DNA of 64,000 bases from a virus. Shown piece by piece: positions 3,779 to 22,167 of this stretch; the stretch's first letter is position 1; each line of letters opens with the position of its first letter. The DNA lies in the IMG/VR virus record IMGVR_UViG_3300031472_000015, positions 16,574-80,573 of that record. One strand, given 5' to 3'. The notes under the pieces were generated by a model. It made no database searches and was not told where the DNA came from. It was given only the letters and a program-made list of their open reading frames with translations. The position numbers and the translations under genes are program-made.

Positions 3779-5008
3779 ATGACCTATGTCCTCCCGAAGC
3801 CGCCGTCCGCCGTCGTCATCCGGCCTGACAATGGGCAACAGTTGCCGGCAACGGGAGCCGACATTCCGCCGGCCTACATCAACTGGGTCCTGACGGAGCT
3901 AAAGGCGCAGGCGATCCAGCTTGGCAGCGCGCCGGTCGGCAGCGTGACCGTGCCGACGCCTACTCCGACGCCTACGCCCGTTCCTACGCCCGTTCCAACG
4001 CCTGTGCCGACGCCGACCCCCACACCCAGCCCGACGCCCACCGGCACCTATGACACTGATGCACAGGTTCATGCCGTCGTTGCGGCGGCCCTGGCCGCGT
4101 TCCCTGGCGGTGAGCTGCCCGCGCAGGTTCACACCGACATCGCCGCAGCCCTGGCGGCGCTTCCACCCTCCGCCACCTCGGCGCAGATGGCCGCCGCTAT
4201 CGCGACTGCCGTGCAGCCTCTTGCGACGCAGGCGCAAGTCACGGCATTCATCAGCGCCGCTGTAGCCGCCTTGCCGCCCGGCGAGACCCAGGCGCAGGCA
4301 CATACAGACATCGCGACGGCGATTGCGGCCCTGCCGGCTGGCGCGACCCTGGCGCAGATGACGGCGGCCATCGCAACCGCAGTGGCCCCGCTCCAAACTG
4401 CGGTGCAGGTCACGGCCTTGATCAACGCGGCTTTGGCGGCCCTGCCAAGCAGCAGCGCGCCCGGCACCACGCTCAGCCAGGTCAACACGGCGATCAGCAC
4501 CGCGCTCGCCGCCCTGCCGCCCAGCGAGTCCGCAGCCAAGGTTCAGACCGATATCGCGGCGGCCATCGCAGCCCTGCCGGCCAGTTCCACCCCGGCGCAG
4601 GTGAGCGCGGCCATTGCGGCGGCCATTGCGGCATTGCCGGCGACGGACAGCCACGCGGCCATTGCGGCGGAAATCGCGGTGGCGATCCAGGCGATCCCCG
4701 CCCCGGTGCCGGACCCGATCCACAAATACGTGGCGGCCGGCGCCATCGCCTCAAACGTCCGCAACGCTTGGCTGTATGCAGCAGGGGCCTACACGCTCGG
4801 TGCACCGACGCAGGACGGCCAGCGCATGACCATCAAGCGCCGGGTGGCGGGTTCGGTCAGCGTCACCCTGTCGCTTGAGGATCAGGCAAGCTACGCCTTT
4901 ACGATGGGCGATCCTGCCGCGCCGTCGCCACCGACGTTCCCGCGCGACTGCCTAACCCTGACCGGCGAGACCACCACCGCAGCGGCGCCCACTTGGTCGC
5001 TGATCTAA
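3779..5008 (+). CDS. Pro/Thr-linker, Ala-rich repeat protein (stalk-like), tail region
   Basis: PTPTPTPVPTPVPTP linker followed by about 11 repeats of ~20 aa (AQVxxxIAAAxAALPxxxT). Confidence 0.6.
   Translation: MTYVLPKPPSAVVIRPDNGQQLPATGADIPPAYINWVLTELKAQAIQLGSAPVGSVTVPTPTPTPTPVPTPVPTPVPTPTPTPSPTPTGTYDTDAQVHAVVAAALAAFPGGELPAQVHTDIAAALAALPPSATSAQMAAAIATAVQPLATQAQVTAFISAAVAALPPGETQAQAHTDIATAIAALPAGATLAQMTAAIATAVAPLQTAVQVTALINAALAALPSSSAPGTTLSQVNTAISTALAALPPSESAAKVQTDIAAAIAALPASSTPAQVSAAIAAAIAALPATDSHAAIAAEIAVAIQAIPAPVPDPIHKYVAAGAIASNVRNAWLYAAGAYTLGAPTQDGQRMTIKRRVAGSVSVTLSLEDQASYAFTMGDPAAPSPPTFPRDCLTLTGETTTAAAPTWSLI
4060..4700 (+). repeat. About 11 imperfect ~60-bp coding repeats (AQVHTDIAAALAALP-type)
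   Basis: Read directly from the translation of 3779..5008. Confidence 0.8.
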
Positions 5009-5018
5009 GACCTCAGTC

Positions 5019-6266
5019 ATGTCCTACTTGCCCACGCCCGCTGCAGCCGACCAGGTTATTGCGCCGAGCATCGCGATAACCGACACGCTGCGGGGGCTGC
5101 ATGGGCGGGCGGAGGTGCAGTACACTCCGCAGGCCATCGCCGACCTGATCCGCGATCTCAATGCGGTGAAGCCACTGCAAATCGCGCAGACCTACGGTGC
5201 CCAGCCCGATGCTGACCAGGGCGCCTTCCTGAACAAGTTCGTTGTCCACGAGAACATCCAGTTTGCTGGCAAGATCGACGTGCTCACGCTGGAACACCAC
5301 TACGGGGGCGGTGCTGGCGGGCGCAACACTTCGGAAGTGTTTAGCTTCTTCGACAGCGCGTCCTTGCCCTCAAACACCGACCGCAACTATGTGGGCTTTG
5401 CCAGCAGCTTCTTCGCAAGCGCGGCGGATAGCCCCGATGCCAACGGCAACGGCGGCGGGGGCTTTGCCGTAAACTTCGTCGCAACGGTCGGACCCGGCGT
5501 CAAGTGGTACAATATCACCGGGGGCGAGATAAACTTTGGGATTGAAACAGGCGGTTCCGCCATACTTAAAAGCGGGCTTTCCATTGCGCCTAATCCCACC
5601 GACACGGTGCAGGCAACGCTCTATGATTGCGGCCTGTCGATCAGCAGCCAGAATGCGACGTTGGGCCTGCGGCACGGTATCCTGTTCAGCAACTACAACG
5701 GATACTTCCCGTGCCGGGCCGATGGCACCCTGATCGGGGTCGCAGGCCCTGGCGCTGCAACCCGCAACGGCATCGACTTCACAGGCTGCAAGTTCTCCGG
5801 CGCCGCCTTCGCATCGGCTAACTTCCAGGTGGATGGCAGCGGCGAGATGCTGGCGAACTCGCTCTCCATCTTCGGCAACCTGGGACCTCCCGGGCAAGCT
5901 CTCCTCGTCCCGGCGTCGCATGCCAACCGCGGGGGCCTTGTCGGCTGGAATGCGTCCAACCTCTCAGGCGAGGTCTCCTACATAAACACCTACCCCGGGG
6001 CGCAGAACGCGCACGAGTGGTACCAGCAGATCGCGGACGGATCGCTGCGTGCCCTGGGCGCGGTCGATAGCACAGGGGCTTGGCAGTTCCCCGTGAGCGT
6101 GTTCACGCCACGGCTGGAGTTCACCCCGGGCGGCGCGGTCCAGGCGTTCTACGACCCTGCTCCAGGCAAGATACTTTTTCAGATCGGGGGCGTGGTTGTC
6201 ATGTCCGTCGATGCCGGTGGCAATATCCGCTCCAAGGGAACCCTCACGGGAAGCGTCGTCCCGTGA
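5019..6266 (+). CDS. Tailspike/fibre-like beta-rich protein (415 aa)
   Basis: Long ORF with G/N/S/T/F-rich beta-type composition in the tail operon. Confidence 0.5.
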   Translation: MSYLPTPAAADQVIAPSIAITDTLRGLHGRAEVQYTPQAIADLIRDLNAVKPLQIAQTYGAQPDADQGAFLNKFVVHENIQFAGKIDVLTLEHHYGGGAGGRNTSEVFSFFDSASLPSNTDRNYVGFASSFFASAADSPDANGNGGGGFAVNFVATVGPGVKWYNITGGEINFGIETGGSAILKSGLSIAPNPTDTVQATLYDCGLSISSQNATLGLRHGILFSNYNGYFPCRADGTLIGVAGPGAATRNGIDFTGCKFSGAAFASANFQVDGSGEMLANSLSIFGNLGPPGQALLVPASHANRGGLVGWNASNLSGEVSYINTYPGAQNAHEWYQQIADGSLRALGAVDSTGAWQFPVSVFTPRLEFTPGGAVQAFYDPAPGKILFQIGGVVVMSVDAGGNIRSKGTLTGSVVP

Positions 6267-6451
6267 TGTTCACGCAAGCCCAAGCCGCAAACCTACTGGC
6301 GTTTCTACGCCCCGAAATCGAGAAGGCGCAGGCGCTCGGCGAACTACTGAACATCATCGGGCCGATTGCCAATCCGCCGCCATCGCCGCCCGGATCGCCT
6401 ACGCCGTCTCTGCCCGAACCGCCTGCCGAGGCGCCTTTCAACCCGTCCTGA
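6266..6451 (+). CDS. Small helical protein with Pro-rich tail (possible fibre chaperone)
   Basis: TGATG coupling to upstream gene; MFTQAQAANLLAFLRPEIEKAQALGELL. Confidence 0.5.
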   Translation: MFTQAQAANLLAFLRPEIEKAQALGELLNIIGPIANPPPSPPGSPTPSLPEPPAEAPFNPS

Positions 6452-6469
6452 CACGAGGGGCTATCATCC

Positions 6470-9400
6470 ATGTCCATCATCAATCCGCAGCCCGCGCAGG
6501 GCACGCTAGGCACGAGCACGTCGTTCGTGGTGTCCGATTCTACTGGACAGCAGACAGCCACGCCAACGCAGGTTGGCGTGCTCCTGGGCATTACTGTGGC
6601 ACCAGCGGCCACCACTCCCACGCCCACCCCGACGACGCCCGGTCCGACCCCGACGCCGACCACGCCGACCACGCCGACCACGGCATTCTCGCTGGTGACG
6701 GCTGGCAACCCCATGCCGGACCTGCTGCTGGCCCTCGACCCGGCGCTGCCGGCTTCCACCGCATCGCTGGTGACCGGCACGCCCGGCATCCAGGTCGATA
6801 CGAACAAGAACGTCCTTGCTCTGATCGAGCCGGTGAACGGCTACCCGTGCGGCCATGGGTATGGCGAGACCATGCTGGTGGCGAGCGGCCCCGGCGGGTT
6901 CCCAGTGTTCCACTCGACCCCAGCCGGATACAATCAGACCTACGACGCCATCGTCTTGCCGTATGAAGTCGGGACCAAGCTGTTCGGCGCCCCGAACGCA
7001 GGCGCCTATGTCGCCTTCGTGCTCAAGCAGACCGCGGCTGGCGCGAACGCGCTGCTGCAGGTGTGGGGGGCGAACGGCAACGTCAACGTCATCGGCGCGT
7101 CCGGGGCCTCCGACGGCGCGCTGCGGGTCGAGCAGAACAACGGCGGCGCGGTGGGCTCGGAGCCGACCTCGTCCGCGACCGCGCTGAACCAACTGCAGAT
7201 CCTTGAGCTGATTTTCGACCCGAACAAAAAGACCATTGCGGTCTGGCGCAACGGCAGCCTCACCTTGGAGACCCCGCCCGGCTACATCGGCAACATCGGC
7301 GCGCTCAGCCGCTTCGAGGTGCTGAATGACGGCCGCGCCGACGTGAGTTGCGCGCTGTTCGGCAGCACCATCCCCACAGTGGCCCAGCAGAACGCGGTCC
7401 GCGCCTTCCTGGCGGCGCGCTATGCCATCACCGTGACGACGAGCACCCCCGCCGTCGTCAACCCGCCTGCCACCACGCCTGGCGCGCTGGCCGACTACCC
7501 GCAAATCTATCGCCAGCCGTCCGGCCCAATATTCAAAGATACGACCCAGGTGCCGTTTGGGGTGACATTGGTCAACCCGGCCAGCAACGTCCAGTGGCTG
7601 AAAATGGGACGCTTGGTTTCAGACGCGAACATCAAGAGCCAAGCCGACCTTTTCTCACAAGTCTATACGCGGAACGCCAACGCCATAGACTCTCCCAGCT
7701 ATTATCCCAACCAGGGAGAAAACGGGTTCGACGCGGTTTATCGGGATTATCCGGAAGGCGACCCTCGGAACCTGCACGTCATCAAGGATGACTGCATGGC
7801 GCTGATCCTCCGCACCCTGGTGGTCGGTCAGACCAGCAGCTACCGTTTCGAGATGGGCTTCATGCGGCTGCTGGAGCACCTGACGAAGGGACGCTACGCC
7901 GAGATGACCTGGACTTGGCCAGGTGGCGACTTTGACACCATCGTCGGGCAGTTGATTTCCTGGCTGACGTTCTGGGGCTTTTCGAACTATCAGGAGCCGT
8001 TGACAAAGAACGTGTATATCGGGCAACCGAGCCTTGAAGGCGACTGGCCCGACAACTTCAAAGAGGATCATGCCCAGCTTGGCGACAGCTATAATACCGG
8101 GTATGTCCTATATGGTAATTACCTGAAGGATGCGCAGGGCAACTACTATCCCGATCCCTCTGTTTATGGAAATCCGAGAAACCTATACCTGAGCAACACG
8201 CCGCCCTTCGTCGGTGGGCGGAACGGGCGGGTCTATGTCACCGATCCCGCCATGAAGCCGCACACCGGCAAGCATCGCATGGGGATCGACTGGCGGCTGG
8301 ATGACACCTGGGTTTTCGTCATTGACGGCGTGCCGGTCCGCAAGCTGCACATCGCGTATCCAGCCGTCTTCGGATCAGGCGGCAGCTACGTGGGCCAGGG
8401 CAATCCCCCGCCGGCCGCCATGAACGGTAAGCCGGTGCCGTTGAACATTGAGATCGGGCACCAGAGCCAGGCGCGGTTCAACCCTGACACCTACGCCAAG
8501 ATGATCGCCAACAACGACACGACAAACCCGCTGCGGGCGGAGCTTCGCATCTACTCCATCGGCGTCTGGGACAGCAACACGACGGTCGAGCCGCCGACCA
8601 GCACGCCCATCCCGGCGCTCCCAGCGCCGCAGACCGGCGCCGCGCTAGGCGACCTGCCGGCGATCACGTCGGGCACCTACCTGCTCAACATCGACGCCGG
8701 CAAGCCGAACCCAGTCAGCGACCAACTCGGGCTGAACACCGTGTTTGCGGTCAACAACCTCTACGTGCCGACCGACCAGATCAACGGGCTGGGCACGATC
8801 CACCTGGACGGCGACGACAACAACCCCGCCGGCCTCGCCGTCCGCGGCCCGGCCGTGGGCCAGGCGCAGGGGGCAGGGCAGGTCGTCCTTTTCGTGGTGC
8901 TCAAGGACGCCAATCCCTATGCGGACAGCCATCCGCAGGTGCTGGCGCAGTTCTCCAGGATCACCCCTCAGACCGACCAGAACACGAACCGCATCACGCT
9001 GAGCATGTCGTCCTTCGGCGCCGGCGCATCGTGCCAGGCGTTCGGCACCCACGGCGGCAACTACGGGGCCTGCATCGCCGGCAGCGACGGGCACTATGCC
9101 ACGGCGTCGGCGGGAGGCTGCAATTTCGGACAGACCGAGATCATCACCCTGACCAAGTCCCTGGCGGGCGACGGCACGGTGGTGGTTGGATCGGGCTACG
9201 GCGGGCAGCAGAACCTGCCGGCGTCCGGCGGCGGGGTGCCGCCTGCCAACATCAGCGGGCTGACCGAGCTGACCATCGGGTGCGCCCGCGACTACGACGG
9301 GTTTGCCACCTGGGGCGCGCTTGGACTGCTGGGACAGGTGATCGAGGTGGGCGTCGCGGCCGGCGGCAGCTTGTCCGCTACCGATTACACGGCCATCGTC

Positions 9401-9481
9401 GCCTACCTGCAAGCCAAGCGCGGGGCGGCCAACCCAGGCGCGTCCACCAGCGCGAACGCCGCGGCATCCTCGGGTTTCTAG
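6470..9481 (+). CDS. 1003-aa multidomain protein: PT linker, LamG-like, divergent GH16-like and second LamG-like domains
   Basis: GRYAEMTWTWPGG...WLTFWGF...LEGDWPD...HRMGIDW...FVIDG follows the GH16 beta-jelly-roll pattern; (PT)n linker near the N-terminus. Confidence 0.65.
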   Translation: MSIINPQPAQGTLGTSTSFVVSDSTGQQTATPTQVGVLLGITVAPAATTPTPTPTTPGPTPTPTTPTTPTTAFSLVTAGNPMPDLLLALDPALPASTASLVTGTPGIQVDTNKNVLALIEPVNGYPCGHGYGETMLVASGPGGFPVFHSTPAGYNQTYDAIVLPYEVGTKLFGAPNAGAYVAFVLKQTAAGANALLQVWGANGNVNVIGASGASDGALRVEQNNGGAVGSEPTSSATALNQLQILELIFDPNKKTIAVWRNGSLTLETPPGYIGNIGALSRFEVLNDGRADVSCALFGSTIPTVAQQNAVRAFLAARYAITVTTSTPAVVNPPATTPGALADYPQIYRQPSGPIFKDTTQVPFGVTLVNPASNVQWLKMGRLVSDANIKSQADLFSQVYTRNANAIDSPSYYPNQGENGFDAVYRDYPEGDPRNLHVIKDDCMALILRTLVVGQTSSYRFEMGFMRLLEHLTKGRYAEMTWTWPGGDFDTIVGQLISWLTFWGFSNYQEPLTKNVYIGQPSLEGDWPDNFKEDHAQLGDSYNTGYVLYGNYLKDAQGNYYPDPSVYGNPRNLYLSNTPPFVGGRNGRVYVTDPAMKPHTGKHRMGIDWRLDDTWVFVIDGVPVRKLHIAYPAVFGSGGSYVGQGNPPPAAMNGKPVPLNIEIGHQSQARFNPDTYAKMIANNDTTNPLRAELRIYSIGVWDSNTTVEPPTSTPIPALPAPQTGAALGDLPAITSGTYLLNIDAGKPNPVSDQLGLNTVFAVNNLYVPTDQINGLGTIHLDGDDNNPAGLAVRGPAVGQAQGAGQVVLFVVLKDANPYADSHPQVLAQFSRITPQTDQNTNRITLSMSSFGAGASCQAFGTHGGNYGACIAGSDGHYATASAGGCNFGQTEIITLTKSLAGDGTVVVGSGYGGQQNLPASGGGVPPANISGLTELTIGCARDYDGFATWGALGLLGQVIEVGVAAGGSLSATDYTAIVAYLQAKRGAANPGASTSANAAASSGF

Positions 9482-9534
9482 CCGGGAGCACGGGGGCGCC
9501 GGCCCCCGCTGCTCCCACCCCGCCCGCCCCCGGC
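9472..9534 (+). promoter_or_regulatory. Putative programmed -1 ribosomal frameshift signal
   Basis: In-phase X XXY YYZ heptamer G GGT TTC (9472-9478) just before TAG; 5-nt spacer; 14-bp hairpin 9484-9516; loop could pair with CCGGC at 9530-9534. Confidence 0.75.
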
Positions 9535-11178
9535 TTGGTGATGACCTTCGACTACCAGGCCGCACGCGACGGCCTGGCCCTGCTGACGCACGGTGATAAC
9601 GCCAGCCTGGATGCCGGCTACCAGGCCAGCGCCGCAGCCAATCCCGCCGCGATCTGGAACCCACGCTATGTGCCGCAAGGCGCGGCAGCAAAGGGCGGCA
9701 CCGACGTTTTCAGCGGCAACTATCAGTTCAACGCTGATCCCGAGTTCGCTTGGTCCAACCACTTCACGCCGTTCGCCACTGACGGCAACGGCGACCTTCG
9801 CATCCGCGCACAGCAGATCTCGACTTTGGGGTTCGCGTCCGGCGAGGTGCCGATTGAGCCGGTGAGCGGCCAGCCATACCCGTATATGTCGGGCCTGCTG
9901 TCCAGCAAGGATCGGTTCTCCCAGCAGGGCGGCTACTGGGAGGTGGTCGCCAAGATGCCGCATGGCACGGCCACTTGGCCTGCATTCTGGCTGATACCGC
10001 TCGCCGAGACGCACCCGCCGGAAATCGACATCAACGAGTATGTCGGCCAGGACGCGGCCACGACCTACCGCACGAACGCCATCTCGGCTGGCCCCACCAT
10101 GCACTCGCAGCCGGTGGCAGGTGCGGTTGACCTCAGCGCCGACTTCTACACCTACGGCGTTTTCTGGACCGACACGACGCTGACCTACTACCTGGACCGG
10201 GTAGCCATGGCCACGGTGGACATCAAGGACGACCCGGAGTTTGGCCAGCCGTTCTACGCGCTCCTCAACCTCCAGATCGGCTCCCGCTTGTCCGGATGGG
10301 TGCCACCGCCTGACGGCAGCACACCGGCCATCCTTGACATGCTGGTCCGGTCTATGAGCGTCTGGCAGCAACCCGGCCCGGTTGGCGTCAACTTCTCAGC
10401 CAGTAGCTTCCTGGATACGACACCGGTTGGCGGCGTAGTATGCACGCTCACAAGCGGCAGCTTCGGCGGCAGCACGGGCCAGACGTTTACCCTGTTGGCT
10501 GGGTCTGATCCGTCCCTGGCTGTGACCGGGAACACGGTCACTGTGGCGCAGGTCGTGTCTGCAAAGACGAGCGCCGCCCGATCTATTCGAGTCCAGGTGA
10601 TGGACAGCGCTGGGCGGACGCAGCAGCGGCTGTTGAAGCTTTCGGTCGTCAGCGGTGCGACGGCCACCAACCTGCTGCCGACTTCGGACCTGACCAGCGA
10701 TGCCTGGAACAAGGAAGGCGTCACCGCGACGGCACCGAACGTTATCATGGAGACGACGGCCAGCGGCGGGCATGACGTGATCGCAGCAGCAGCGGTCGCC
10801 AAACCAGCAGGGGCCACGCGCTTCGCCTTCACCGTTCGCGCGACGCCGAACCTGTCGGATGGCTGGGTGCAGGTCCAGGTGTTCGCCAGCACGGGCGGAG
10901 CAACAGATTTTGGAACGACTGCCACAGCTTGGTTCAATGTGGCGTCGTCGGCAGTCGGTTATAGCGTCACCACCGGCAACTGGTCTGGCGGGGTAGCAGC
11001 GACCGCAACGCCATTGTCCGGCGGCCAAGTGTTGTTAAGCATGACTTGGGCCGCCGGAAACGAAACCGGACTGGTGCCGCTACTTCGTTTAGCCAAAGGT
11101 CAAGATCAAACGTCGTATGCCGGCGCCACAACTGCTGGTATGACGCTAGACAATGTTAATCTTTCTGTGGCGCAGTGA
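9478..11178 (+). CDS. -1 frame extension: Pro/Ala linker, GH16 glycoside hydrolase, cadherin/Ig-like and CBM-like domains
   Basis: GGYWEVVAKMP..WPAFWL...EIDINE canonical GH16 motif; no SD before GTG/ATG at 9538/9541; frame is -1 relative to 6470..9481. Confidence 0.75.
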   Translation, partial: LAGSTGAPAPAAPTPPAPGLVMTFDYQAARDGLALLTHGDNASLDAGYQASAAANPAAIWNPRYVPQGAAAKGGTDVFSGNYQFNADPEFAWSNHFTPFATDGNGDLRIRAQQISTLGFASGEVPIEPVSGQPYPYMSGLLSSKDRFSQQGGYWEVVAKMPHGTATWPAFWLIPLAETHPPEIDINEYVGQDAATTYRTNAISAGPTMHSQPVAGAVDLSADFYTYGVFWTDTTLTYYLDRVAMATVDIKDDPEFGQPFYALLNLQIGSRLSGWVPPPDGSTPAILDMLVRSMSVWQQPGPVGVNFSASSFLDTTPVGGVVCTLTSGSFGGSTGQTFTLLAGSDPSLAVTGNTVTVAQVVSAKTSAARSIRVQVMDSAGRTQQRLLKLSVVSGATATNLLPTSDLTSDAWNKEGVTATAPNVIMETTASGGHDVIAAAAVAKPAGATRFAFTVRATPNLSDGWVQVQVFASTGGATDFGTTATAWFNVASSAVGYSVTTGNWSGGVAATATPLSGGQVLLSMTWAAGNETGLVPLLRLAKGQDQTSYAGATTAGMTLDNVNLSVAQ

Positions 11179-11932
11179 GTGGTAGAGAGACCTCTAACAA
11201 AGTTTTTTGTTCTAATCCAGCGGTCGCACGACGCCAGTTTCTACGGGAACGTACAGCCCGTATTGTCGCACGACATACACCATAGAGTTCCGATAACTGG
11301 CTGTTTGTACTCATAGACAGGTAGATATTACGAGCAATTTCTTCATTCAATACGGTTTGCGGCAGTCTGGTGCCGTACGCGATTGTATCGTTGCTAGCAG
11401 CATCAATCACGTTATCGGTGTGAAGAATGCATATCACGTTGCTTGGCTCATAAGCACCTTTGTCACCCAACCGAGCCATACAAAACTTTCCTTTGGTGCA
11501 TCCTCGCTTTTCAAACCAATCTGCGCCAAGGGCGTTTTCCCACCAAGATACCCACTCTGCAAAAGAGAATAGAAGTGGAATGCCTCGGCTTTTGGCACTA
11601 TAGAATTGATTTTCAAATGCGGTTTTAGCGCGAAGCGTTTCCCGATGCCGGAAACTATAGCAAGAAAAGCAAAGCGTCTTTTCATCTCTAGTTGCCGCCT
11701 GATTACATCCAGGCGTTTGGCACATTGGTTTATACCTACCAAGGTTGTGCCTTAGGTTATATGCGTCAACACGTAGCTCTCCACATAGAGCACAGGTGCC
11801 TCTTGCTGTGTTGCGCTGGCTGCGATGCCCTTTTCCACACAGCCGCCCATCAAAGTATCGGTTCAAGCCTTGCGCAAGCGCGTTCGCGCGCGTGACAATC
11901 GGCCCGGCATAGTCCACGGTCTCGTCAGCCAT
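11156..11932 (-). CDS. Free-standing HNH/His-Me homing endonuclease-like protein
   Basis: RYFDGRLCGKGH zinc motif, CMARLGDKGAYEPSNV...HTDN nuclease core, C-terminal HTH; AT-richer than flanks. Confidence 0.7.
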   Translation of the reverse strand: MADETVDYAGPIVTRANALAQGLNRYFDGRLCGKGHRSQRNTARGTCALCGELRVDAYNLRHNLGRYKPMCQTPGCNQAATRDEKTLCFSCYSFRHRETLRAKTAFENQFYSAKSRGIPLLFSFAEWVSWWENALGADWFEKRGCTKGKFCMARLGDKGAYEPSNVICILHTDNVIDAASNDTIAYGTRLPQTVLNEEIARNIYLSMSTNSQLSELYGVCRATIRAVRSRRNWRRATAGLEQKTLLEVSLPLTAPQKD

Positions 11933-11957
11933 GTCGCGTGTGCCCCTGTATGCGCGT

Positions 11958-12034
11958 TTCGGTCAGGAGCCGCATGGGTCTGATCACCCGGCGGCTCCGC
12001 TCCCATCATAGCACAAACCTCCTACGCCGGCAGC
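11958..12034 (-). promoter_or_regulatory. Promoter and 5'-UTR hairpin of the HNH gene
   Basis: Minus strand TGcTATGAT extended -10, followed by the GAGCCGC...GCGGCTC stem. Confidence 0.5.
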
Positions 12035-12085
12035 ACCGCCGCCGGGATGCAGCTCGACGCCATCAGCCTCTCCGTCGCGCAATAA
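12014..12085 (+). pseudogene. Orphan duplicate of the 3' end of the GH16 extension (QTSYAGSTAAGMQLDAISLSVAQ*)
   Basis: Aligns codon for codon with 11107-11178 (QTSYAGATTAGMTLDNVNLSVAQ*). Confidence 0.8.
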
Positions 12086-19700: not shown

Positions 19701-21211
19701 CCTGGAACCAGGCCATGGACATCTACCGGCAGGCTCCAGCTGCGAACAAGGGCTGCACGATGCAGCTTCCCGGCGGCCCCTTTGCCATCGTCAACGACCC
19801 CTCGGGCACGGCGGACTTCAACCGCCACGGCATCGGGCACGGCAACAACGAACAGTATCCGCCCGGTCCCTACACCCTGCGCGGGCCTGCCGATGTCAGC
19901 AACCCTGCGATCCTGACCTTGAACGGTGCGCCAGGCTTGTCGGCGCAGGGCGGCCTGATCGCGCAGGGCGGCGACGTGCAGTTCATCAACCTCATGGTCA
20001 AGAACGTCAGCAACCTCAATGCCGGGGAAGGCAACGCTGGCGCGTTCTACAAGACGGGTGGCTGCCCCCACAACCTACTGATCCAGGACAGCAAGGCATA
20101 CAACAGCGACAACGGGTTCCTATCCGGCTACAACGAGGCCAGCACCATCACGATGCGGCGGTGCGTGTTCGCCTTCAACGGCATCGGCGCGGGCGGCCTC
20201 ACCCACAACTTCTATGTGGGCCATGCCGGGCACGCCATCGCCGACCAGGTGCTGTCGTTCTCGACGGCGCAGGTGCATGAGGGCAAGTGGCGCAGCCGCA
20301 TCACCACGATCACGAACAGCACCTTTGCCGACGGGCAGAACGGCGTGCCGGGCAGCAGCTCGTGCCTAGACTTCCCGCTGGGTGGGCTGGTGAACGTCAC
20401 CAACACCGTGCTGCACAAAGGCCCCTGCCCGAACGGCGACACGGACATGGTGCAGTATGGCGAGGAGGCGCCGGGGCAGAACGGCCCCGCCTGGGACGTG
20501 AACGTGCTGACCCTGGACGGCGTGACGTTCCTGAACACGGCGGCACCAGGCTCCACCAGCTCAAGCACGATCGCGGTCAACTTCATGCAGGGCGGCGCCG
20601 TGCCGTGCGTGTCCCCGACGACCGGCACTCCTGCGACCATCGTCGTCAAGAACAGCCGGTTCTACAACCTGCCGCGGGATCAGTGGTTCCTGGAAAGCGC
20701 GCCAGGTAACACCATCACCGATGGCGGCGGCAACGTGTTCCTGACCGATTGGCCCGGCCTGCAAGCCATTGATCCCAGCACGGGCGTGCTGCTAACGCAG
20801 GCGCACAAACCGGGGCCAGGGTTCGACGCGGGCTACATCGGCGTCAAAGGCGATCATGGCATCGTGCTGGATGCGCTGGAGCTGGAGACGCGCATCCCGG
20901 CCGGCGCCTCAGTCGGCAGCTGGGTGACGCAGTTCTTCGTTTACGACCAAGCCGGCAAGCCGCTGGGCAGCCCCGTGTGGTCCCTGCCGACCGACCAGGT
21001 GAACACCGGGGCGTTCAGCCTCACCGCGTCCGGCCAGCTCAACGTGGCGCAGGCAGGGCTTGTGGACGGCCTGCGCTGGGCCAAGGCGCAGGTGACGGGC
21101 ACGGACAGCTTCGGTGCGGCACAGAGCTACACGAAATACATCTACGTGATTGTGGGCACCGGGCACGTTCCGGGCCTGGCGACGCAGGGTGGGGCGGTTC
21201 TGGCCGCCTAG
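16730..21211 (+). CDS. 1493-aa protein: Ala-rich stalk repeats, Ig/cadherin-like domains, C-terminal beta-helix domain
   Basis: AAGGA RBS; GELPxQVHxDIAAA repeats; Ig-like G.HxVxVxD segments; NGFLSG/THNFYVG/EGKWRSR beta-helix pattern. Confidence 0.7.
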   Translation: MSHLPGFFTSPAQMQSAITTAVSGVPLGELPTQVHQDIAAAVLALPAGSTPAQVQTAITTALAGQPVGELPAQVHADIAAAVAALPVGATPAQVTAAITSATAGLATVAQVAAQFSGAPLAALADTTQLAVSSGSAIVGTIPVSAFRSYLMATSAPVPLPILALVMPTAVQSGTGYMINGTYANDGTSPILSVIVDGGSPQTLPAGSTVSGGSIVLAMGGMSNGTHRVQVQDGNGNLSNVVQFAVTPAETLTLDPITTPPAPGAAFSLTGGYANGTPGGLDYAITLTGDTVTWTSAVSPTLASGRYSIAVPALPAAGRYTVQVRDHSAQSIVASTALTVAAAAGTMPTVPLPVNAAAGAPAPANLPPLLAFTGPAGPPTGALALTHLGGAAIDTMVQNGSGALVLPGVAYAYAALEGLGALANGAFEIVAANGPQALNFGVFVRVPPDFSKSPVLLFKGGNGVQLYGFDPSNPSFSAPATFSDLLVSVTGQTVVVTVDGAQVLSFTGTQLPASGFVGLGSSTTPMPQAQVASVRVLTAAQIAAALAQSAATAAAAATAEALIGNPVTNPNADGFAPGIYGPDTVVVAAGSYGTRTYGNWFARLPTGGAQQWSLSGPAASTGMYLGGTSGTSLTEYGIGAANGTYPGVLTVTDGQSTFTKNISVVVQATAVIPGGCFILDSAAVNPYGNGSGDLAAQLILEPPIDQFAGGAATFTDPNGMLGWDRQGLNQLWVTSAGRPLSAHYGKHTGATFTSPAGTQAFTYYFAQEQPAGLTFQPVPAYTYAQPGNVFGRLLASSDAGIASYSVISTDTPLSIGSDGTMRYLVQPAAGAGNAVHVRVTSQSGHTTDITVSNPVQASTTLPASSMTLTLSAALDNSMGTLVAPGPVPVGTASVSGMGNPVWRVQAVGEFPLNTGSGIQGTFNIAPRAGNPALADITANFLSGQTYQVQVTATQGATQCQATTALTVADLNGTGPVIQIVPGSAVTATQAPTWNQAMDIYRQAPAANKGCTMQLPGGPFAIVNDPSGTADFNRHGIGHGNNEQYPPGPYTLRGPADVSNPAILTLNGAPGLSAQGGLIAQGGDVQFINLMVKNVSNLNAGEGNAGAFYKTGGCPHNLLIQDSKAYNSDNGFLSGYNEASTITMRRCVFAFNGIGAGGLTHNFYVGHAGHAIADQVLSFSTAQVHEGKWRSRITTITNSTFADGQNGVPGSSSCLDFPLGGLVNVTNTVLHKGPCPNGDTDMVQYGEEAPGQNGPAWDVNVLTLDGVTFLNTAAPGSTSSSTIAVNFMQGGAVPCVSPTTGTPATIVVKNSRFYNLPRDQWFLESAPGNTITDGGGNVFLTDWPGLQAIDPSTGVLLTQAHKPGPGFDAGYIGVKGDHGIVLDALELETRIPAGASVGSWVTQFFVYDQAGKPLGSPVWSLPTDQVNTGAFSLTASGQLNVAQAGLVDGLRWAKAQVTGTDSFGAAQSYTKYIYVIVGTGHVPGLATQGGAVLAA

Positions 21212-22167
21212 CTTATCGCCAGCACCCGCCGCTTGGGATGCAGCATCGCCCCAAGCGGCACTTCCACCCACCGATGCACGATCCAGCCCACGGCCACGCA
21301 CGCGACGATGGCGACCGGCAGCGCGGCCAGCATGGGCAACGGCAGCGTCACCGGGCGGATGGCTTGCAGGACGAACAGATGTGTGAGGTAGAGGGCATAG
21401 CTGCTGTCCCCGATGCGGCCTAGCAGCGGGATGCGGGGCAGGCGTCCGCCGGCTTCCAGGCCGAGCGCGGCGGCGGTAATCAGCAGCACAGGCAACCCCC
21501 AGGCCAGCGCCCGCCACGTCTCGGGCACGGGGCTGCGGGATTGCACCGCCAGCAGCATGGCGCCGGCGAAGGCAATCACGATACCCCGCGGCAGACATCC
21601 ATGCTGCCAGGCCCGGTGCAGGCACGCCCCGGCCAGAAACTCCAGCAGCATTGGGCTGGTGACGGTGGCAAGGATCGGGTCGGCCGGGCGCAGTGCGATC
21701 CCGGCTAGGACCAGCGCCCCAAACCCTGCGGTCAACACCAGCAGGCGGCGCGCGGCAGGCAGCAGCAGCGACGCGGCGAATAGCAGGTAGAACAGAGCCT
21801 CGAAGTTGAGCGTCCACCCCTGGACCAGCACTGGCCAGCCGCGCCCGTCCGGCCCGGCGTGCGGCAGGAAAAGCAGCGACGCCAGCAGGTGCCCGGCGTC
21901 CGTCGTGCGAGCCAGCACCGCCGCCAGGAGCGTTGCCAGCCAGTAGAGCGGCACCACCCGCACTGCGCGGGCGCGCAGGAAGGCGGCGGGCGACGGCTCG
22001 CGTCCGCTGACGTGCACCATGATGAAGCCGCTGATGACGAAAAACAGATCTACGCCAGCCTGCCCGACCTGAGTGTGCGTCCAGGTGGTGTGGTGCGCCA
22101 CCACGGCCAGCGCCGCGATGCCGCGCAGATACTGAATGGAGCGGAGCGAGCCGGGTGCATGGGTCAT
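21208..22167 (-). CDS. Acyltransferase family 3 (OafA-like) membrane O-acetyltransferase
   Basis: IQYLRGIAALAVVAHH, GVDLFFVISGFIM, FLRARAVRVVPLYW, WTLNFEALFY, GDSSYALYLTH motifs; multiple TM segments. Confidence 0.9.
   Translation of the reverse strand: MTHAPGSLRSIQYLRGIAALAVVAHHTTWTHTQVGQAGVDLFFVISGFIMVHVSGREPSPAAFLRARAVRVVPLYWLATLLAAVLARTTDAGHLLASLLFLPHAGPDGRGWPVLVQGWTLNFEALFYLLFAASLLLPAARRLLVLTAGFGALVLAGIALRPADPILATVTSPMLLEFLAGACLHRAWQHGCLPRGIVIAFAGAMLLAVQSRSPVPETWRALAWGLPVLLITAAALGLEAGGRLPRIPLLGRIGDSSYALYLTHLFVLQAIRPVTLPLPMLAALPVAIVACVAVGWIVHRWVEVPLGAMLHPKRRVLAIS

Follow-up and report, generated by a model that had tools for sequence, protein, structure and literature searches.

A probable programmed −1 frameshift that would place a catalytic GH16 module on a myovirus tail fibre

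In one phage genome, a large tail-fibre-like gene ends just where the reading frame of a glycoside hydrolase family 16 (GH16) enzyme opens in the −1 frame, which raises the question of whether these are two genes or one gene joined by recoding. The locus lies in a stretch of 64,000 nucleotides (nt) (hereafter the window, whose coordinates we use), which is part of the 106.8-kb IMG/VR phage record IMGVR_UViG_3300031472_000015. A first-pass annotation, made from the sequence of the window, had proposed a programmed −1 frameshift that adds the enzyme to the fibre protein. All computational tests that we ran supported this reading, through a conserved signal, rare codons at the slip site and in-frame fusions in relatives, and we put its probability at roughly three in four. 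The predicted products are a 1003-amino-acid (aa) fibre protein and a 1569-aa fibre-GH16 fusion that carries an extension of 566 aa.

The upstream open reading frame, ORF1 (6470-9481, + strand), encodes the 1003-aa tail-fibre-like protein in the zero frame and ends, as first described, in TCG GGT TTC TAG. A slippery heptamer, G_GGT_TTC (9472-9478, + strand), sits there in zero-frame phase, and the stop codon TAG (9479-9481, + strand) abuts it. This is the sole in-phase canonical heptamer (X_XXY_YYZ, where Y is A or T) in the 3 kb of ORF1; in the window as a whole, such a heptamer falls in the final three codons of only 3 of 278 open frames that reach 100 aa. The conserved core of the heptamer is the tetramer T_TTC (9475-9478). 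Folding bore out the stem of 14 base pairs (bp) that had been placed 5 nt past the heptamer; the hairpin (9484-9516, + strand; stem 9484-9497 / 9502-9516), a candidate frameshift stimulator, has one bulged C and a GCCG loop. Its folding energy is −32.3 kcal/mol (z −4.2 against shuffled sequences, none of which folds equally well), and comparably stable local hairpins number 13 on the + strand of the window.

Not every proposed part of this signal held up. A pseudoknot between the GCCG loop and CGGC at 9531 found no support: 43% of shuffles match such a 4-nt pairing, and it is not conserved, with no pairing in one relative described below (L002) and a 6-nt match only in the other (L004; p about 0.02). 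We also rejected two other roles for the site. Transcriptional slippage is ruled out because the T runs at the junctions span just 3-5 nt, and an intrinsic terminator because the hairpin lacks a T tract and matched nothing in our scan, which found no terminator-like or promoter-like site in 9000-10000.

The −1 frame proved open from the heptamer, as the first-pass annotation had stated. It starts GFLAGSTGAPAPAAPTPPAPG... and passes through a Pro/Ala-rich linker (LAGSTGAPAPAAPTPPAPGLV; 9478-9540, + strand), which would be translated only after a shift, into a GH16 catalytic domain (9535-10371, + strand) with the motifs WPAFW and EIDINE (10021-10038). The same linker pattern occurs inside four continuous proteins (P0009, P0010, P0033 and P0038). 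The catalytic domain scores 63.4 bits against PF00722 in Pfam (cut-off 22), matches solved laminarinases (E 2e-13) and, in Foldseek, matched GH16 structures of the beta-jelly-roll fold (E 5e-12, probability 1.00); its catalytic residues E184, D186 and E189 are invariant in 15 homologues. Two C-terminal beta-sandwich domains complete the module (10384-11178, + strand; about 10384-10656 and 10684-11175, stop codon 11176-11178). They are conserved across homologues and modelled by AlphaFold with a predicted local distance difference test (pLDDT) score of 80-95; the Foldseek list for the model of the whole module was filled by GH16 chains.

Read together, these elements suggest the following course of events. 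The shift would take place on the final two sense codons of the tail-fibre gene of a myovirus. The majority of ribosomes would terminate at TAG and release the 1003-aa fibre protein, and a fraction would stall at the hairpin. In these, tRNA-Phe (here with tRNA-Gly) would slip back by one base, from G_GGT_TTC to GGG_TTT, after which CTA would be read, followed by the linker, the GH16 glycanase and the two beta-sandwich domains. The predicted fusion junction is ...AAASSGF-LAGSTGAP.... The sequences themselves establish how the signal is built, that it is conserved, that codon choice at the slip site is biased and that in-frame fusions exist; we infer that ribosomes slip here, how efficiently they do so, what the enzyme cuts and that virions take up the long form.

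If the signal is functional, relatives should keep it. A word-index search with ORF1 identified P0003, a protein 71% identical to ORF1 over residues 1-990 and then extended by about 450 aa of a duplicated extra domain. On the contig that encodes it (L002), a GH16 gene 54% identical to that of the window lies 50 nt further on. The closest homologue of the GH16 module itself (P0006, 57%) lies on a third contig (L004), behind a partial ORF unrelated to ORF1. Both contigs come from other samples, two in number, and each has its GH16 frame at −1 to the ORF that precedes it. Those preceding ORFs terminate in TCT TTT CCG TAG (L002) and CCT TTT TAA (L004), so that an in-phase T_TTT stands where the window has T_TTC, and the −1 frame also reads TTT. 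Z_ZZN is described as a minimal −1 slip motif in a recoding review (PMC5009743). The stop codon directly follows the Phe codon in L004, as in the window, and comes one codon later in L002.

The stimulator is conserved along with the tetramer. A homologous core stem begins 5 nt past the Phe codon in both relatives, as it does in the window, and folds as a 14-bp hairpin in L002 (−33.7, z −5.2) and in L004 (−31.6, z −5.6); two compensatory base pairs keep the stem paired among the three loci. From the Phe codon onwards the −1 peptides are alike (F-L/S-x-G-S/G-x-G-..-P-x-x-G-L/M-..-T-F-D/S-Y), and the domains upstream of the three junctions are mutually unrelated. All three GH16 ORFs are intact at about 520-545 codons, with mutual identities of 54-57%. 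The T_TTY tetramer, the 5-nt spacer, the stem and the −1 relation were thus all retained in L002 and L004, and the canonical heptamer of the original proposal was not. Further copies of the junction did not emerge from wider searches: a DNA search of the phage collection with positions 6000-12000 of the window gave no match, protein-guided and pattern scans of IMG/VR viral contigs gave neither a relative nor another copy of the junction motif, and scans of metagenomes and genomes brought up nothing but signal-peptide-bearing GH16 genes of bacteria, all without a −1 junction.

Codon choice at the slip site points the same way. The codon that supplies the T before Phe is rare in its own locus at each of the three junctions: GGT makes up 11% of Gly codons in the window, TCT 5% of Ser codons in L002 and CCT 10% of Pro codons in L004. 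L002 offers an internal comparison, as it encodes the peptide QAAPPSF twice, once at the end of each copy of its duplicated domain. The internal, in-frame copy reads CCG TCC TTC AAC, whereas the copy at the junction reads CCG TCT TTT CCG TAG; the slip motif therefore belongs to the junction and not to the peptide. The region between the ORF1-like core and the junction in L002 (12213-13583; P0003 residues 985-1441) consists of two tandem copies of a domain of about 225 aa without a family assignment. L002 has two copies of this domain, the in-frame homologue P0033 one and the window none, and modules have therefore been both gained and lost just upstream of the junction.

Do related phages ever make the fusion without a shift? 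An exhaustive, profile-free search of 1.8 billion representatives recovered proteins with the GH16 module at the C terminus in a single frame (P0033, 1877 aa; P0038, 1259 aa; P0044; P0046; P0050; P0059), and we confirmed the in-frame state on DNA for the loci of the first two (L086 and L087, respectively). In these two the module follows homologous fibre parts, P0033 being itself a homologue of ORF1 and P0003 with one copy of the extra domain. Its junction (...TDIQAAPPSF-SAGGS...PVSGMVSTFDY) matches the trans-frame product predicted for L002 (...TDIQAAPPSF-SVGGS...PLPGMVSTFDY). The other confirmed locus, L087, is a sister of the L004 module, with a homologous linker (SGS...GGQASIAP...PGMTQT) written in different codons and no hairpin (−17.9). 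P0038 ends right past the GH16 catalytic domain, and the next ORF begins in the overlapping TAGCATG (L087 6778-6785); this ORF appears to hold the beta-sandwich region that comes next, now as a gene of its own, so that the same module is split differently here.

A maximum-likelihood tree groups the three −1 loci with the two in-frame loci in a single clade (support 99/98), L004 and L087 being sisters (100/98). Branches within the clade are long (0.2-0.5 changes per site) and every GH16 ORF is intact; the frame state has therefore changed at least twice without disrupting the GH16 ORFs. Across three assemblies from different samples, the −1 junctions fall within the same few nucleotides, have the stop codon 0-1 codon later and carry the strongest hairpins of the clade. 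The first-pass annotation had raised in-frame homologues as a possible counter-case. Such fusions do exist, and they stand beside three separately assembled −1 junctions in a single clade, which argues for the fusion as the functional product and not for an error in the window.

Several observations nevertheless pull against a programmed shift. Neither L002 nor L004 has a canonical heptamer, only the tetramer T_TTT, and the three −1 loci share ancestry and so are not three independent observations. L086, though in frame, retains TCT TTT together with a weak hairpin (10 bp only, −21.6). Equally stable hairpins also occur upstream of TFDY inside continuous bacterial ORFs (L013, −33.4; L015, −31.7), which weakens any argument from hairpins being found only at −1 junctions. 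The bacterial linker hairpins probably arise from the complementarity of GGN (Gly) and CCN (Pro) codons in GC-rich DNA, and part of the stem in the phage loci may likewise be a by-product of linker composition. The hairpin alone is therefore not decisive, and what counts is that it keeps a constant distance to T_TTY and is lost in L087. Further points are that L005 has a short, independent GH16 gene lacking any large anchor domain, and that the window has an in-frame cluster of start codons (9535-9543) and L002 an aligned ATG, which makes initiation without a Shine-Dalgarno (SD) sequence formally possible in both. As regards the bacterial loci themselves, the hairpins in the GH16 linker or leader are perfect over 10-11 bp and GC-rich, and lie inside or at the start of continuous ORFs (L013 about 3950-3990, L015 about 3900-3960; for example GCCGGGCGGC...GCCGCCCGGC, encoding KPGG..PPG); they may reflect just the complementarity of Gly and Pro codons.

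The start cluster leads to the alternative that survives best, namely that ORF1 and the GH16 ORF are two separate genes. The GH16 ORF would then start by itself, without an SD, at ATG 9541-9543 (or at TTG 9535 or GTG 9538, which precede it on the + strand), the hairpin would be an intergenic element or a by-product of composition, and the heptamer would be a coincidence. The first-pass annotation was right that this ORF has no SD and had left the in-frame TTG-GTG-ATG run unmentioned; it is this run that makes an independent start formally possible. Met or Leu is frequent at this position across the family, and the single ATG in the GH16 frame of L002 is the one that aligns with the ATG of the window. 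Stand-alone phage GH16 genes exist in three further loci, and each has an SD of its own: AAGGAA in L005 (TAAGGAAA), TAGGAGA in L006, where the gene also carries its own fibre N-terminal domain of about 100 aa, and GGAGA in L009. L008 and L009 had been considered as further −1 relatives and were set aside as other architectures with their own start and SD; a fourth −1 candidate, P0034, whose called start is the Val of GLV, turned out to be a mis-started bacterial lipoprotein gene.

An SD is what the −1 loci lack. None lies ahead of the GH16 frame in the window, L002 or L004, unlike in the stand-alone GH16 genes and in the neighbouring fibre genes, which have AAGGAA or GAGG 8-12 nt upstream; the sequence upstream of 9535-9543 is C-rich. 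L004 has CTG at the codon aligned to the ATG of the window and no canonical start ahead of the conserved N terminus: its GH16 frame has no ATG, GTG or TTG from 462 until TTG 711, and the conserved TFSY motif begins 10 codons before that TTG. Ahead of the Met, P-x-x-G-L-V and the G-S-x-G linker are also conserved in proteins that certainly translate them, and the AlphaFold model places the Met of ATG 9541 inside a beta-strand (23-29). Separate genes would also leave unexplained the rare codons that form T_TTY and the adjoining stop. We therefore regard two independent genes as unlikely.

Less likely still is an unprogrammed break, in which module shuffling or a one-base deletion split an in-frame fusion and left the GH16 part silent, or reached by background slippage only, and decaying. 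The in-frame fusions of the same clade lend this idea some plausibility, as does the spacer of L086, which is one base off that of L002 (AGCGCA versus CCGTA). It would, however, need three breaks that all hit one stretch of roughly 10 nt in a gene of more than 4.5 kb, and decay fits poorly with three GH16 ORFs that are all intact, with invariant catalytic residues, despite identities of 54-57%. Nor would it account for a stop 0-1 codon past the slip site and the clade's strongest hairpins at all three junctions, or for synonymous codons biased towards slipperiness. A sequencing or assembly error hiding one in-frame ORF, which the first-pass annotation had asked to have excluded, is very improbable. 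In its favour stand the metagenomic origin of the assembly and the in-frame relatives; against it, a second assembly (an independent assembler, on the rock-metagenome DNA run that is the probable source of the record) is identical over 9200-9800 at depth 58 with no indel, the site has no long homopolymer, and the same −1 relation recurs in contigs of two other samples. Among the public runs listed, this DNA run was the only one to contain the stretch, and no RNA run did.

Under a programmed shift, the protein that receives the enzyme would be a myovirus fibre. ORF1 belongs to a baseplate and tail-fibre module spanning 626-21211, which comprises a wedge-like protein, a fibre with a known N-terminal domain and then several large ORFs with no family match. 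The syntenic relative L002 encodes Sheath_initiator, Baseplate_J and Wedge1, and the module is therefore of myovirus type; homologues of ORF1 in such syntenic modules include P0003 and P0033 (56% identity). ORF1 itself consists of a short N-terminal segment, a Pro/Thr linker and a central domain that had no Pfam match. Residues 456-702 of this domain (~7800-8580) matched GH16 weakly in hhalign (probability 50%, E 1.7e-4), in an alignment that pairs SWLTFWG with WPAFW and LEGDWPD with EIDINE, and an invariant E523-x-D525-x-P-D528 occupies the place of the GH16 ExDxxE motif. An AlphaFold model of ORF1 built from three sequences reached a pLDDT of 27. The central domain may be a divergent or inactive GH16-like domain.

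Beyond the GH16 ORF, the window also differs from L002. Its GH16 ORF is separated from the next fibre gene by an HNH endonuclease gene (11156-11932, − strand), and the last ~24 codons of the GH16 ORF (QTSYAG..GM.LD..SLSVAQ*) occur twice, as the live 3′ end (11107-11178) and as a remnant beyond the HNH gene (12014-12085). Behind the remnant come an SD and an ATG; in L002, where no HNH gene intervenes, the same two elements stand immediately after the GH16 stop. Directly past the fibre genes, an O-acetyltransferase gene (21208-22167, − strand; phrog_3333, acyltransferase-3 type) possibly encodes a modifier of the glycan that the fibres target.

What the enzyme might cut is suggested by its cellular relatives. 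The nearest are signal-peptide proteins of Acetobacteraceae (Acidisphaera, Roseomonas and lichen-associated metagenome-assembled genomes), whose GH16 loci also hold Wzz/GNVR, Wzy, flippase and glycosyltransferase genes. ExoK-type GH16 exopolysaccharide (EPS) glycanases of Sinorhizobium likewise sit in EPS loci. From these loci, and by analogy with the ExoK-type enzymes, the phage module would seem to be an EPS glycanase and the host a member of the Acetobacteraceae. The bacterial EPS-locus enzymes have a signal peptide, whereas the phage copy has none and is attached or adjacent to a fibre gene. Given this relationship to secreted glycanases of Acetobacteraceae EPS loci, some of the fibres, those with the long isoform, would probably bear an enzyme that cuts EPS. 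In one bacterial EPS locus (L012), the conserved TFSY N terminus lies out of frame with the called body of the GH16 gene (4333-4434); that gene is either broken or mis-assembled.

The arrangement proposed here shares features with several known recoding systems and differs from each. In E. coli dnaX, a 3′ hairpin a few nucleotides downstream stimulates the −1 shift. Both dnaX and the chaperone genes of the lambda G/GT type undergo −1 frameshifting on slippery runs (PMC5009743), and a poly-T motif, GTTTTT, has been proposed for some tail assembly chaperone genes (PMC12846349). These cases share with the proposed site a −1 shift of bacterial ribosomes on a slippery run and, for dnaX, the 3′ hairpin; chaperone products, however, are not virion enzymes, the dnaX shift truncates its product and there is no sequence relationship. 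Closer in setting is gene 10A/10B of T7 (and gene 10 of T3), where a −1 shift is reported at the heptamer G_GUU_UUC (PMC5009743). T7 and the site proposed here have in common a shift close to the end of the gene for a structural virion protein, on a heptamer that is rich in G and U and ends in UUC (here G_GGU_UUC), and a minor, C-terminally extended isoform beside a major short one (both shift and isoform being predicted in our case). T7 extends a capsid protein by a short segment and needs a distal 3′ element, whereas the window would extend a tail fibre by 566 aa that include an enzyme and has its hairpin adjacent to the slip site.

Mixed frame states also have a precedent. Some phages encode immunoglobulin-like domains in frame with a structural protein, and others reach them through a frameshift (Fraser et al. 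2006, as cited in PMC5009743); the explanation given there is non-homologous recombination, which can drop the module into any of the frames. We see the same in-frame and out-of-frame pattern within one clade, with another kind of payload. Theirs are binding domains without catalytic activity, about 100 aa long, on capsid or tail-tube proteins; ours is a three-domain module with a canonical GH16 active site on a fibre. Functionally, TpeX of lactococcal 936-group phages comes closest: there a programmed frameshift adds a carbohydrate-binding module to the major tail protein (PMC6669499). In both systems a frameshift puts a glycan-directed module on some subunits of a tail protein (here by prediction). 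TpeX differs in carrying a binding module with no reported hydrolytic motif, on the siphovirus tail tube of phages of Gram-positive hosts, and its host protein and signal are unrelated to those described here. Full-text literature searches returned no reported frameshift that appends a catalytic glycanase to a tail fibre, and the terms 'tail fiber' and 'hydrolase' were not found in the accessible portion of the recoding review (PMC5009743).

One further idea can be put forward tentatively. The slip tetramer, hairpin, linker and GH16 domain might form a portable, 'frameshift-ready' depolymerase cassette that can be grafted behind any fibre domain ending in Phe. It would deliver a sub-stoichiometric dose, on average fewer than three monomeric enzymes per trimeric fibre, and lineages might adjust that dose by toggling between in-frame and −1 coding.

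Known frameshifts in phage structural genes concern capsid, tail-tube and chaperone proteins and add small binding domains. If the programmed shift proposed here is real, its signal is compact (a tetramer, 5 nt and a hairpin) and directly testable with reporters, and gene callers would mis-annotate such depolymerases as separate proteins without an anchor. A single family with the module in frame, out of frame and stand-alone would help in studying how frameshift signals originate, and recoding could set the share of receptor-binding fibres that bear a depolymerase.

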